A stretch of 30,216 nucleotides of DNA from a virus (IMGVR_UViG_2537561604_000012), one strand, 5' to 3'. Positions 13,872 to 27,836 are shown, counted from the first letter of the stretch. The notes: generated by a model not told the origin, from the sequence alone. Program-made: numbers and translations.

Positions 13872-14324
13872 ATGTTTAGCGGAAAGCCGCTGGATTATCA
13901 GGATGAACCGCTGACCAATAACGGATTCTGGCCAGACCTGAATCTGAAGGATTTTCAGGCGCAGCGGTCACTACCGCCAGATATTGACGCTGACACCATC
14001 AGCCAGGCGCTACTTGCGGCGGTGGCGGAGGTGAATGCGGAGCTGGAAAACGTGGAAGCCAGCTGGAAAGCGAAAGGCAACACGCTGGCGGCAGAGGTAC
14101 CAGGCGTAAAAATGGGCGGACTGAACAGCCTGTGCGCCCAGTATATGAAGGCCGTTTTTGCCAGGGCAAAAGCGGATCTGCTGGGGGAGTTTGCCACCAT
14201 CGGGCGGCGTGATACCCATCCGGGACAGGAAAGCATGGAAACCCGTGCGGGGTTACTGGCTGAAGCATCGGTGGTGATCCGCCGTATGAAAGGGCTGAAA
14301 CGGGCAACGGTGAAAAAAGTATGA
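13872..14324 (+). CDS. L: Head completion/stabilisation protein, P2 gpL-like (by position)
   Basis: 150 aa, ATG 13872 with GGGGGA upstream; follows small terminase as in P2; no motif verified. Confidence 0.55.
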   Translation: MFSGKPLDYQDEPLTNNGFWPDLNLKDFQAQRSLPPDIDADTISQALLAAVAEVNAELENVEASWKAKGNTLAAEVPGVKMGGLNSLCAQYMKAVFARAKADLLGEFATIGRRDTHPGQESMETRAGLLAEASVVIRRMKGLKRATVKKV

Positions 14325-14827
14325 GCCAGACGCAGATCCAGAGCCTGACCGCATTTTTTAAAGAGAATGTCCCGCCCCGTGCGATGCGGTCATTTGACAG
14401 TGTGCTGGATGAGATGAAGTTCATTCCTGCGGCGAAGGATTACGGACTGGGACAATATCGCCAGGCGGTGATCCGATATGACGCGGTTCTGAGCTGGGAG
14501 CGTTTCCCGTATCGCCTGTGCCCGCCGCAGCTGCTTATGTCCTTACTGGCGGCGTGGCTGGATGATGCTGACAGGGAACTACTGGATGAAGTGGGACTGA
14601 GTGAAGCCGAACCGGACTGGGATGTGTCGGTGGAGGATGAGGAAGTGGCCACTGTGGTGCTGACTGTTCCGATGGTGGAAGAACTGGTGATCAGGCAGGA
14701 CGAAAACGGGGCTATTCCGTGGCGGGGTGAGCGATGGTCACTGGTTGAGCCTGAAATCTGGACGGCACTGACCGCCAGTATTTACAGCGTGGATGAGCCC
14801 GGTGCGCCGGTGGGGGATAACGAATGA
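14321..14827 (+). CDS. Putative tail completion protein (gpR-like, by position)
   Basis: 168 aa; ATGA-coupled to L; acidic C-terminal half; assignment by synteny only. Confidence 0.35.
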   Translation: MSQTQIQSLTAFFKENVPPRAMRSFDSVLDEMKFIPAAKDYGLGQYRQAVIRYDAVLSWERFPYRLCPPQLLMSLLAAWLDDADRELLDEVGLSEAEPDWDVSVEDEEVATVVLTVPMVEELVIRQDENGAIPWRGERWSLVEPEIWTALTASIYSVDEPGAPVGDNE

Positions 14828-15531
14828 TTGCCGGTGGCGAGCTGAATAAAAAACAGCTGGCCGAATTGCGCAAAGCACTGGCCAGCATGGAGCTGCCGCC
14901 GAGAAAACGGCAGCGTCTGATCTGGCGTCTGGCCAAATATGGCGTGATTGCTGCGGCAAAACGGCATGTGCGCAATCAGGAATCCCCGGATGGCCAGAAG
15001 TGGCCGGGACGTAAGACAAAACGCAAAGGGAAGATGCTGCGCAACCTGCCAAAGCTGCTGCATATCCGTGAAATGCCAGAAATTCAGGCTGTGCGGATCT
15101 ATTTACAGGGCGGCGGATACCGGAACGGGGAAACGCCGGTACCAGCCGGAACGGTGGGTTACGCGCAACAAAACGGAATGCGCGTAAAGGTCAGCCGCAG
15201 TAATCAGCCACGGAAGGCAGAGGCCGGGAAAATGGCGACGCCTGCCCAGGCCAAAAAATTACGGGCGCTGGGGTACCGGGTGAAAACCGGTAAGCGATGG
15301 AAAAAGCCCACACTGGGCGAAATCACCAAAACGATGCCATACAGCCAGGCGGGGCTGCTGATTCGAAAACTCAGCGGTAAAGCCGTGAAAACCAGCTGGA
15401 CAGTGGATCTTCCTGCCCGTGTGTTTCTGGGCATGAATGATGATGAATTTGACAAGGCGCTGGCGCGTCAGCTTCAGGCCATCGGCTTTGGCTGGGACGT
15501 TAAAGCGCAGGATATTAAGGGGAAAGCATGA
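14824..15531 (+). CDS. Putative virion morphogenesis / tail completion protein (gpS-like)
   Basis: 235 aa, basic, ATGA-coupled; resembles phage virion morphogenesis family in composition; by position. Confidence 0.4.
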   Translation: MIAGGELNKKQLAELRKALASMELPPRKRQRLIWRLAKYGVIAAAKRHVRNQESPDGQKWPGRKTKRKGKMLRNLPKLLHIREMPEIQAVRIYLQGGGYRNGETPVPAGTVGYAQQNGMRVKVSRSNQPRKAEAGKMATPAQAKKLRALGYRVKTGKRWKKPTLGEITKTMPYSQAGLLIRKLSGKAVKTSWTVDLPARVFLGMNDDEFDKALARQLQAIGFGWDVKAQDIKGKA

Positions 15532-25648: not shown

Positions 25649-26165
25649 TGGCGAGGCTATCCAGCTGAAAAACATGCGGGTGACTGTTTCACAGCAATTT
25701 CAGGATAAAGATCAGTCCGGCCAGACCAGCGCCACAACAAAATCAGAGCAGGGAGCAAAGGGAAAGGAACTGCGGATCAGCGGTGAAATACCTTTTAAAC
25801 AGCCTGAAATACTGAAGCGTATTTTTGAGCTTGCCAGCGCTACCGATGCCAGTGGTAATCGTCAAAAGTACCGTGTGGCGCATGAAGTTGCCCGTGCTGT
25901 TAATTTTCGTGAAGCAACGTTCAGCGGAATGCTGGATGCACCCCAGCAGGACGGGAAAATGTCCTGGCTGGTGACGTTCACACTGGCGGAACATATCAGC
26001 GTGCAGGAAAAGCGAGAGGCCAGAGCAACAGGTAAGACGACCGCAAAAAAACAGACTGCCGGTAGTGCGGGACAGGCCGGTGGCCAGTCTGCCGGAGAAG
26101 ATGAAGAAAAACTGACGTGGTTTGAACGCAAGGTGCTGAAGCCCGTCAATGATGCTTTGGGTTAA
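25620..26165 (+). CDS. Hypothetical protein (181 aa), presumably tail-associated
   Basis: ATG 25620, AAGGG upstream; Lys/Gln-rich low-complexity C-terminus; function unknown. Confidence 0.4.
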   Translation: MTSIPTLALNGEAIQLKNMRVTVSQQFQDKDQSGQTSATTKSEQGAKGKELRISGEIPFKQPEILKRIFELASATDASGNRQKYRVAHEVARAVNFREATFSGMLDAPQQDGKMSWLVTFTLAEHISVQEKREARATGKTTAKKQTAGSAGQAGGQSAGEDEEKLTWFERKVLKPVNDALG

Positions 26166-26872
26166 TGATGAAACCAGTAAAACGCCTTTACCTTTCAACG
26201 GATGAAGTTCACCTGGTGGATGCCAGCCTGGTACTGGAGCTGAACAGCTGCGGCCGGGGCTTCATCACCGCAGAGACAACAACCGATTACACCGGAAAAC
26301 TGGTGCGGCTGGATGTAGGGTATACCGATCTGCTTTTGCGCTGGTTTACGGGGTACGTGGAGCGATCGCAGCCCGCAGAAAACGGTTTTCAGCGTCTGTT
26401 CATTCGTGAGCTGGTAGGTGTGTTTGAAAGGATGTGGCCGTGCTCATTTCAACATCCAACTTTACGCGAGGTTGCCAGCTGGCTGGAAGAAAACAGTGGT
26501 ATCTCGGTCAGTGTGCCTGATGCACAGTACAGCGATACCCCCATCCCACATTTTACCCATAACGGTACCGGCTATCAGTTGCTGAACAATCTGGGAAGGG
26601 CGTTCAGTATCCAGGATTACATCTGGTACCAGTTGCCTGATGGTTCGCTTTACGTCGGTGGCGCAGAAAAGTCACTGTTTGCCGGTCGTCCCGTAGAAAT
26701 CCCGTCAGAGTTCAGCCAGGGGGCTGCTGGTGGTAACTCTGTGACATTACCAGTGATCCAGACTATGCGGCCAGGGGTGGAGATGAACGGTGAACGCGTG
26801 ACTAAAGTTCACCTGACTAATGACACGATGGCGATCACATGGACGCCGAGAAACCGCGCAACGGCAGATTGA
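26165..26872 (+). CDS. Putative baseplate hub protein fragment (gpD / gp27-like N-terminal region)
   Basis: 235 aa; pattern ...LDVGYTDLLLRWFTGYVE... and TLREVASWLEENSGISV resembles N-terminal part of gpD/VgrG-type hub proteins from memory; too short for a full hub, and overlaps next ORF by 53 nt. Confidence 0.35.
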   Translation: MMKPVKRLYLSTDEVHLVDASLVLELNSCGRGFITAETTTDYTGKLVRLDVGYTDLLLRWFTGYVERSQPAENGFQRLFIRELVGVFERMWPCSFQHPTLREVASWLEENSGISVSVPDAQYSDTPIPHFTHNGTGYQLLNNLGRAFSIQDYIWYQLPDGSLYVGGAEKSLFAGRPVEIPSEFSQGAAGGNSVTLPVIQTMRPGVEMNGERVTKVHLTNDTMAITWTPRNRATAD

Positions 26873-27836
26873 AAGCCATTACCCGGAACTGGCATCCGGG
26901 CTTCATTTGCCAAAGACGGCCAGAGTCGTGGCGCATTCAGAGCCAGTAAAAAGCGGTAACTTTGCCGATCCCTTCCGGCCACGTTACGCCGTGGACGTGC
27001 AACTGCTTGACGCAGACGGAAACCCGGACAATCAGACGCCTGTTTACTCAGCGGTGCCGCTGCCGGTACCAATGGCCGGGAATGATTCAGGTATGTTTCA
27101 GTTCCCGCCTGAAGGGACGCTGGTTGAGGTCGCATTCACAGGAGGCAGACCGGATAAACCCTTTATCAGGCAGACGCTGCCGGATGGCACCAGTCTGCCG
27201 GACGTTAAACCCGGTGAGCAATTACAGCAGCAGCGGGAAGAAGTATCCCTGAGGGTGACTCAGGCGGGTGACTGGGTAAGGCAGACCGATCAGACCATCA
27301 GCGAAACATCAATGGTGCGAACCGTAAAAGCCGATACAGAACAGCGCGAACTGGTCAGCCGTGAAACCACGGTGAAAGCCACGGATAAAACCACGGTACT
27401 GGGAACCGCCACATTGCTGGCCGGAGCCATCCAGCAGGTAAGCGCCGGTGATTATAGCCAGGCGGTGAAAGGTAACAGGCTGGCCAGTATTGAAGGAAAC
27501 GAAGAAACGGACATAGCAGGACAGCAGTCCACTAAAGTGGGCGGTGCTGTAGCCGTGGAGGTTGGCGAAAGTCTGACAGAGAAGATTGCCGCACTGCGTA
27601 AATCAGTGGCTGCTGGCGGTCAGCAGGTCATGGGGGCAACTGTCCATATTGGCAGTGAGAGCATCAACGCCCTGACCATGATGCTGGATACCATTGATTT
27701 ACTGGCAGAGCTTGCGCAGCAATGCGCGAACCATTCGCACCCCACCGTTGGAACTCCAACCAATGCCGCCGCGTTCACACTGACGGCGACGAAAGCCGGG
27801 CAGACCCGGAGCAAATACCAGAATATAATTGCCTGA
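26820..27836 (+). CDS. Baseplate spike / gpV (gp5 OB-fold)-like protein; start uncertain
   Basis: OB-fold-type motif VPLPVPMAGNDSGMFQFPPEGTLVEVAFTGGRPDKPFI; last gene before terminator. First ATG 26820 lacks RBS; frame opens at 26817. Confidence 0.5.
   Translation: MTRWRSHGRRETAQRQIESHYPELASGLHLPKTARVVAHSEPVKSGNFADPFRPRYAVDVQLLDADGNPDNQTPVYSAVPLPVPMAGNDSGMFQFPPEGTLVEVAFTGGRPDKPFIRQTLPDGTSLPDVKPGEQLQQQREEVSLRVTQAGDWVRQTDQTISETSMVRTVKADTEQRELVSRETTVKATDKTTVLGTATLLAGAIQQVSAGDYSQAVKGNRLASIEGNEETDIAGQQSTKVGGAVAVEVGESLTEKIAALRKSVAAGGQQVMGATVHIGSESINALTMMLDTIDLLAELAQQCANHSHPTVGTPTNAAAFTLTATKAGQTRSKYQNIIA

Follow-up and report, generated by a model that had tools for sequence, protein, structure and literature searches.

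Tail and lysis genes of an Escherichia coli prophage very probably form the canonical late operon of HP1-group Peduoviridae, with a split hub-spike gene

We analyzed a stretch of viral DNA of 30,216 nucleotides (IMGVR_UViG_2537561604_000012), hereafter the window, which holds a P2-like prophage with an integrase gene at 297-1337 and the portal and large terminase genes at 7941-10774, all on the minus strand, together with one run of plus-strand genes at 10900-27836. The subject of this work is the distal part of that run, at positions 14321-27836, which the original prediction had described as a mosaic tail module suggestive of modular exchange. The order of the open reading frames (ORFs) was as described there, the Pfam and PHROG family assignments concurred, and the contrast that had been drawn with the order of phage P2 was correct when compared with the P2 gene table. 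The idea that this order is unusual did not hold, as it was identical in the phages HP1, K139, phiO18P, and phi3 and in the ESSI2 phages. Collectively, the analysis indicated that 14321-27836 is very probably the canonical late operon, comprising tail and lysis genes, of the HP1 group of Peduoviridae, found here in a Quadragintavirus-like prophage of E. coli. All the features of this operon lie on the plus strand.

The first three genes (14321-16655) had been regarded as having no firm assignment, and strong family matches were found for this region. The protein encoded at 14321-14827 is a tail terminator of the P2 gpR family (Pfam P2_Phage_GpR, E 5e-23; PHROG 65, E 6e-32), equivalent to HP1 orf21 and with 25-31% identity to HP1 orf21 and K139 orf21. 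The next one (14824-15531), the HP1 orf22 equivalent, is a gpS-like tail completion or Neck1 protein, with a match to PHROG 26 (E 7e-33), a weak one to Pfam Phage_tail_S, 30% identity to HP1 orf22, and an hhalign probability of 89% when aligned with P2 gpS. The contractile tail sheath (15528-16655) was identified by Pfam DUF2586 (E 2e-135) and PHROG 907, listed as tail sheath (E 2e-163), and showed 52% identity to its equivalent, HP1 orf23. The tail tube protein (16652-17107) matched Pfam Phage_HP1_Orf24 (E 8e-64) and was 59% identical to HP1 orf24, its equivalent.

A lysis cassette follows the tube gene. It starts with a holin of the P2 gpY type (17117-17419; Pfam Phage_holin_3_2, E 6e-39), which was 54% identical to P2 gpY and had no blastp match in HP1 or K139, and continues with an endolysin of the M15 peptidase type (17406-17747; Pfam Peptidase_M15_4, E 8e-11), also annotated as endolysin in the related Escherichia phage ESSI2_ev129 (hereafter ev129). 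The i-spanin, Rz-like (17747-18085; PHROG 1152, E 8e-35), has an N-terminal hydrophobic segment in its translation, and the o-spanin, Rz1/LysC-like (17946-18245; Pfam LysC, E 2.5e-6), shows a signal peptide with the lipobox LSAC. The o-spanin gene starts inside that of the i-spanin, with an overlap at 17946-18085, and this fits the two-component overlapped spanin architecture. Neither the endolysin nor the two spanins had a blastp match in HP1, K139, or P2.

Next to the cassette lies the gene of the tail assembly chaperone (18229-18489; Pfam Phage_TAC_10, E 7e-37; 43% identity to HP1 orf26), an analogue of P2 gpE and the equivalent of HP1 orf26. A slippery heptamer, A_AAA_AAC, is found at 18480-18486, and the −1 frame runs through 64 sense codons to a TGA overlapping the ATG of the tape measure gene (18677). 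This ORF (18480-18679) is a putative −1 frameshift extension, analogous to E+E', and we consider it probable that the chaperone is made in two forms, as in P2 E / E+E' or lambda G / GT. The tape measure protein (18677-20644; Pfam PhageMin_Tail, E 1e-21) is the equivalent of HP1 orf27, with 31% identity over 693 amino acids. It is followed by a DUF2590 protein (20641-20970; Pfam DUF2590, E 1e-45; 60% identity to HP1 orf28, its equivalent) in the position of the sheath initiator gpW. It gave no hhalign match with P2 tail proteins when a three-sequence profile was used; from its position, and from the sheath initiator found by HHpred in the HP1-group phage ACA1 (Hwang et al. 2023, PMC10612066), it may be gpW-like. 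The baseplate wedge is represented by a protein of the J/gp47 family (20967-22151; Pfam Baseplate_J, E 8e-29), which is equivalent and 50% identical to HP1 orf29, and by a gpI-like protein (22144-22731) with 57% identity to its equivalent, HP1 orf30, and a match to Pfam Tail_P2_I just below the family cut-off (E 5e-4).

The tail fibre (22742-24346) contains a Phage_tail_fib N-terminal domain (Pfam, E 4e-32) and a Collar domain; its N-terminal 270 amino acids were 45% identical to HP1 orf31, to which the C-terminus was unrelated. The tail fibre assembly protein, Tfa (24346-24933; Pfam Caudo_TAP, E 5e-36), showed 44% identity to P2 gpG in its C-terminus, and its gene contained a 178-nucleotide stretch 93% identical to tfaE of Erwinia phage RF1. 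A short nucleotide match to an E. coli phage side tail fibre was also present in the fibre/Tfa region.

The last part of the operon is a central baseplate block. Its first product (24923-25648) belongs to the HP1 orf33 family and is presumed to be a baseplate component, with 29% identity to HP1 orf33 and 24% to K139 orf37. It fell in PHROG 1677, listed as of function unknown, and no Pfam, NCBIfam, or PDB match was found for it. An AlphaFold model built from 42 homologues of 65-97% identity was unusable, with a mean predicted local distance difference test score of 39. The second protein (25620-26165) is a member of the HP1_ORF34 family of Pfam and has a tube-protein fold, and its Foldseek matches included LysM tube-like proteins, at a weak E value of 4e-3. 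Hence, the view that 24923-26165 has no assignment stood for the first of these two genes and not for the second. With a tail-tube fold and a gene beside that of the hub, the orf34-like protein fits the tube-initiator or ripcord class, and we read it as a tube-to-hub adaptor, a counterpart of P2 gpU or Mu gpN whose exact role is inferred; a gpU counterpart was identified by HHpred in phage ACA1 (Hwang et al. 2023, PMC10612066). The PDB sequence and profile searches with the orf33-like, orf34-like, and sheath proteins retrieved nothing meaningful, and the alignments of the orf33 and orf34 families, with HP1 and K139 included, gave hhalign probabilities below 2% with every single P2 tail protein.

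The block ends with two ORFs in different frames, at 26165-26872 and 26820-27836. The former matched the N-terminal, hub part of HP1 orf35 (45% identity), covered positions 1-233 of the 544 of the PHROG 2258 profile, and matched PHROG 196, baseplate hub (E 2e-6), whereas the latter, in which the native sequence begins at residue 13, matched the C-terminal, spike part of HP1 orf35 (38% identity) and positions 240-544 of the same profile. Both matched the single proteins HP1 orf35 and K139 orf39; therefore, the separate hub-like and spike-like genes that had been proposed as the last of the module are the two halves of one HP1 orf35-type gene, the first being cut short by a frameshift. The C-terminal part of the intact protein of ev129 (567 amino acids) matched the beta-helix of T4 gp5 (E 5e-7) and, weakly, VgrG. 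A fused VgrG-like hub-spike in one polypeptide is thus not what the window encodes. The operon is closed by a strong intrinsic terminator at 27849-27865, formed by GCCCGCATAATGCGGGC and then TTTTTTAT, and the terminator T39 of K139 occupies the same position. The possibility of an ogr-like gene at 27858-28130 was discounted, as the ORF overlaps the terminator and had no match in HP1, K139, or P2.

When all the proteins of the window were compared by blastp with those of HP1, K139, and P2, the best match of each tail gene was collinear in HP1 and K139, with 25-60% identity and E values between 1e-11 and 1e-138; in P2, the tail proteins had no match other than the holin and the Tfa C-terminus. 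The gene orders of HP1, K139, phiO18P, and phi3 were taken from the RefSeq annotated tables. The order shared was L, R, S, sheath, tube, lysis cassette, chaperone, tape measure, DUF2590, J, I, fibre, Tfa, orf33, orf34, and orf35, and the corresponding RefSeq ranges were orf20-orf35 in HP1 and orf20-orf39 in K139. HP1 (Hpunavirus) was collinear gene for gene, and differed in its unrelated holin, endolysin, and spanins, and in the fibre C-terminus and Tfa. Vibrio phage K139 (Longwoodvirus), Aeromonas phage phiO18P (Bielevirus), and Pseudomonas phage phi3 (Phitrevirus) showed the same order, with the lysis cassette following the tube gene and preceding the chaperone gene, and the orf33-orf34-orf35 block in last place. 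Unlike the window and HP1, these three phages have a DksA-like zinc-finger gene between the tube and holin genes (21566-21775 in locus L003 of K139, 4611-4820 in locus L009 of phiO18P, and 4783-4992 in locus L010 of phi3), and phiO18P also has a DNA methyltransferase gene within the lysis cassette. Insertions between tube and chaperone are evidently tolerated in the HP1 group. With Seongnamvirus and Quadragintavirus, six genera shared the order. Members of the sheath family were present in 76 phage records with lengths of about 30-38 kb. These came from Vibrio, Haemophilus, Pasteurella, Aeromonas, Pseudomonas, Pseudoalteromonas, Salmonella, Yersinia, Cronobacter, and Escherichia. The window contains the signature families of the group, DUF2586, Phage_HP1_Orf24, DUF2590, and HP1_ORF34.

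The window order does not fit the P2-type (Peduovirus) tail organisation. In P2, the lysis genes stand after L-X and before R-S, V-W-J-I-H-G and FI-FII-E-T-U-D are separate operons, hub (D) and spike (V) are separate genes far apart, and no sequence similarity was detectable for the sheath, tube, hub, and DUF2590 proteins. The likeness to P2 lies in the head block (Q, P / O, N, M, L), with 27-42% protein identity, in the gpY-type holin, and in the gpR, gpS, J, and I families, which were detectable by profile: the hhalign runs with three-sequence profiles of the other tail families recovered gpS at its 89% and placed J, I, and R at or near the top with weak scores, and found nothing for sheath, tube, DUF2590, and hub. 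Phage Mu shares with the window the internal order of adaptor, hub, and spike (Mu N-P-gp45); however, in Mu, this block comes directly after the tape measure gene and before the wedge and fibre genes, whereas in the HP1 group it comes after Tfa, and the lysis genes of Mu are upstream of the head genes.

These comparisons bear on whether the tail was acquired recently, i.e., whether this element, or an ancestor close to it, joined a P2-type head to a tail and baseplate module of foreign origin. In favour of such an event, the order is unlike those of both P2 and Mu, and the head proteins are similar to P2, next to tail proteins without blastp similarity to it. However, the head proteins were themselves nearer to HP1 and K139 than to P2, with identities of 48 and 44% versus 33% for the portal and of 51 and 51% versus 42% for the terminase large subunit, and therefore head and tail travel together. 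The head block is of the P2 type, with the portal and large terminase genes inverted (7941-10774, minus strand), and then scaffold, capsid, small terminase, and head completion genes (10900-14324, plus strand); its proteins showed 33-51% identity to those of HP1 and K139, and the ev129 annotation concurred. Moreover, the same combination of head and tail, in the same order, is found in Hpunavirus, Longwoodvirus, Bielevirus, Phitrevirus, Seongnamvirus, and Quadragintavirus. The literature is in agreement: the HP1-like viruses were defined as a genus, and their capsid genes were reported to follow the order of P2 and their tail genes to lack similarity to it (Lavigne et al. 2009, PMC2771037), and the genera of Peduoviridae have been split by tail-protein similarity into an HP1 group, which takes in Seongnamvirus, and a P2 group, with two anciently diverged tail modules whose split was dated back at least to the origin of the family (Hwang et al. 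2023, PMC10612066). A recent mosaic origin is thus extremely improbable. The proposed exchange of tail and baseplate modules was right in that the differences from P2 are real and the tail has had a separate history; this is ancient, already published, and set at the level of the family, and not an event in this element.

The reading as a canonical HP1-group operon is further sustained by the joint presence of a P2-type head block, tail proteins far nearer to the HP1 group, and a collinear orf20-orf35 operon. As the order was kept in at least six genera and the head proteins are HP1-like, it is an ancient, family-level feature; the gene order would have been inherited and not newly assembled. 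Three points weigh against this reading. The full order was checked in the annotated tables of six genera, versus the 76 phage records with the sheath family. The order is the norm of a well-described group, but not every protein has an annotated structural homologue, the orf33-like protein (24923-25648) being without a functional assignment. Finally, the lysis genes are unlike those of HP1 and K139, and thus some real exchange occurred inside the module. In all the HP1-group phages examined, the lysis cassette stood after the tube gene and before that of the chaperone. Local exchange concerns its content and not its position. The fibre tip and Tfa are a second site of cassette-level replacement, and the exchange visible at this scale is limited to these two cassettes, both of which are commonly exchanged in tailed phages.

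The nearest relatives of the element were Escherichia phages ESSI2_ev129, ev015, and ev040, which came from infant gut viromes (Mathieu et al. 2020, PMC6969025) and are placed by the RefSeq taxonomy in the genus Quadragintavirus of Peduoviridae. They matched 14321-27836 with 97% nucleotide identity and 99% coverage, and Cronobacter phage ESSI-2, the type of Seongnamvirus, matched it with 75% nucleotide identity. Gene content and order were identical to those of the three Escherichia phages, and the proteins were 93-100% identical; ev129 and ev015 differed from the window in the early and cargo regions. The element is a prophage of E. coli, ESSI2_ev129-like, with likely membership at the level of the genus Quadragintavirus. 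Within 1-14320, 47% was matched by ev129, at 99% identity and from 7602 onward, and 82% by ev015, at 94% identity. The early region was patchy when compared with the relatives, the regulatory and replication half being more mosaic than the tail half.

Past the late-operon terminator, the segment at 28000-30216 has a low content of guanine plus cytosine (0.39-0.41) and codes for a hypothetical protein of 238 amino acids (28353-29069, minus strand) and a DUF6338-family ORF. It looks like a cargo region; at the corresponding end, ev129 has a serine acetyltransferase gene, and the ev129 record has its ends in the interval that separates the hub-spike gene from the cargo region. Another side observation concerned a plus-strand ORF of 78 amino acids (13539-13775), flanked by the genes for small terminase and head completion. 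It is made up of a 45-bp unit that encodes GAHTHTVGAHSHSLG and is present in 4.2 copies (98% match). The ORF matched the phage tail fibre repeat family of Pfam (E 1.8e-7) and shares its His-rich motif with the fibre C-terminus. The ORF is kept in ev129, where it is annotated as tail fiber protein, and is absent from HP1, K139, and P2. In E. coli Combat13F7 (NZ_CP019245.1, 76000-111000; locus 4654-9099), a remnant of the same prophage was found adjoining mntS, with int, cI, cox, cII, and fil joined directly to an intact hub-spike gene and all the intervening replication, head, and tail genes deleted.

All the phage proteins other than the hub-spike were full length when compared with ev129. The three Escherichia phages contain one intact hub-spike gene for 567 amino acids, and the alignment with ev129 showed that the window lacks 32 bp, namely one copy of a 9-bp direct repeat and the 23 bases between the copies; the single remaining copy, GCGCAACGG, marks the deletion junction at 26856-26864. 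The loss of one repeat copy and the spacer is the signature of slippage or microhomology deletion. The hub-spike gene was found in 46 complete E. coli genomes, and the span was 733 nucleotides for a query of 701 nucleotides in each match listed (40 of the 46). An 80-nucleotide junction probe likewise spanned 112 nucleotides in each match listed (10 of 27), and therefore the extra 32 bases are present in all the E. coli genomes inspected. In agreement, the protein was in one piece in each of the 13 phage records inspected by whole-protein alignment. The exact truncated protein of 235 amino acids was present on three public contigs, one of them a 75.7-kb Logan assembly of SRR436787, and so the deletion is not peculiar to the window.

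The deletion could be thought an error of assembly or sequencing, with an intact gene in the real genome, since it was unique among the relatives examined and the three contigs could share one strain or read set. A clean loss of 32 bp with one repeat copy is unlike a typical homopolymer or collapse error, and the independent assembly of SRR436787 has the same truncated protein; thus, we regard an artefact as very improbable. We favour, with some reserve, that the split lesions the tail tip: the 32-bp deletion would most likely weaken or abolish the infectivity of the virions, unless the second ORF is still translated. Alternatively, the two last ORFs might function as a hub and spike pair, the deletion having recreated the layout of other HP1-group genera. 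Overlapping hub and spike genes occur naturally in Canoevirus (gp40/gp41), Playavirus SMHB1 (gp48/gp49), and the Pseudomonas phages phita81A/2 and phi3, and the protein alignment placed these natural splits exactly at the linker ...ITWT-PRNRATGKPLQKTPA-QRQIES..., the site of the deletion in the window. The two products, of 235 and 338 amino acids, compare with 232 and 323 in phita81A/2, the loss comprises only about 10 linker residues (GKPLQKTPA), the other phage genes are intact with respect to ev129, and the truncated protein recurs on the three contigs. Against this, the ATG at 26839, the conserved start of the natural second gene, is out of frame with the spike part and was rejected as its start; the only in-frame ATG (26820) lies 53 nucleotides upstream of the stop of the first ORF and has no recognisable Shine-Dalgarno sequence; and none of the related E. 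coli genome rows and phage records inspected had the deletion, as expected for a recent, probably deleterious event. A working two-gene pair is therefore possible but rather unlikely. Slightly more doubtful still is that the deletion represents a gene fission in progress at the interdomain linker that is split in Canoevirus, Playavirus, and Phitrevirus-like phages. The linker itself is a recurrent fusion/fission site in the HP1 group.

With the preferred reading of a canonical HP1-group operon, the genes would encode a small contractile tail with gpR-like and gpS-like completion proteins, sheath, tube, chaperone, and tape measure. This tail would also hold the DUF2590 protein at the sheath-initiator position, the wedge proteins J and I, and the fibre with its assembly factor, and the central baseplate block would be formed by the orf33-like protein, the orf34-like tube-fold adaptor, and the VgrG-like hub-spike; the roles of the individual baseplate proteins are predictions. 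The search of ten of the proteins, among them sheath, tube, DUF2590, the I-like, orf33-like, and orf34-like proteins, and hub-spike, against NCBIfam release 20 gave no match, and nearly all the E. coli RefSeq genomes examined give the hub-spike gene the label "hypothetical protein". Annotation pipelines thus leave most HP1-type tail proteins as hypothetical, and scans that use P2 as the only reference will, therefore, keep flagging HP1-type prophages as odd.

The HP1-type order and the separately derived tail module are already known and published, and a textbook layout of this kind has little discovery value. The only new details are that the hub-spike gene is split, in a strain-specific way, at a recurrent fusion/fission point and that the orf33 family has no assigned role. 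The split gene offers a testable marker of prophage infectivity. If the doubtful case of a fission in progress were true, with the spike ORF translated from the ATG at 26820 or by reinitiation, the prophage would still make infectious particles, and the fused and split forms of the central baseplate protein would interconvert through single linker indels.

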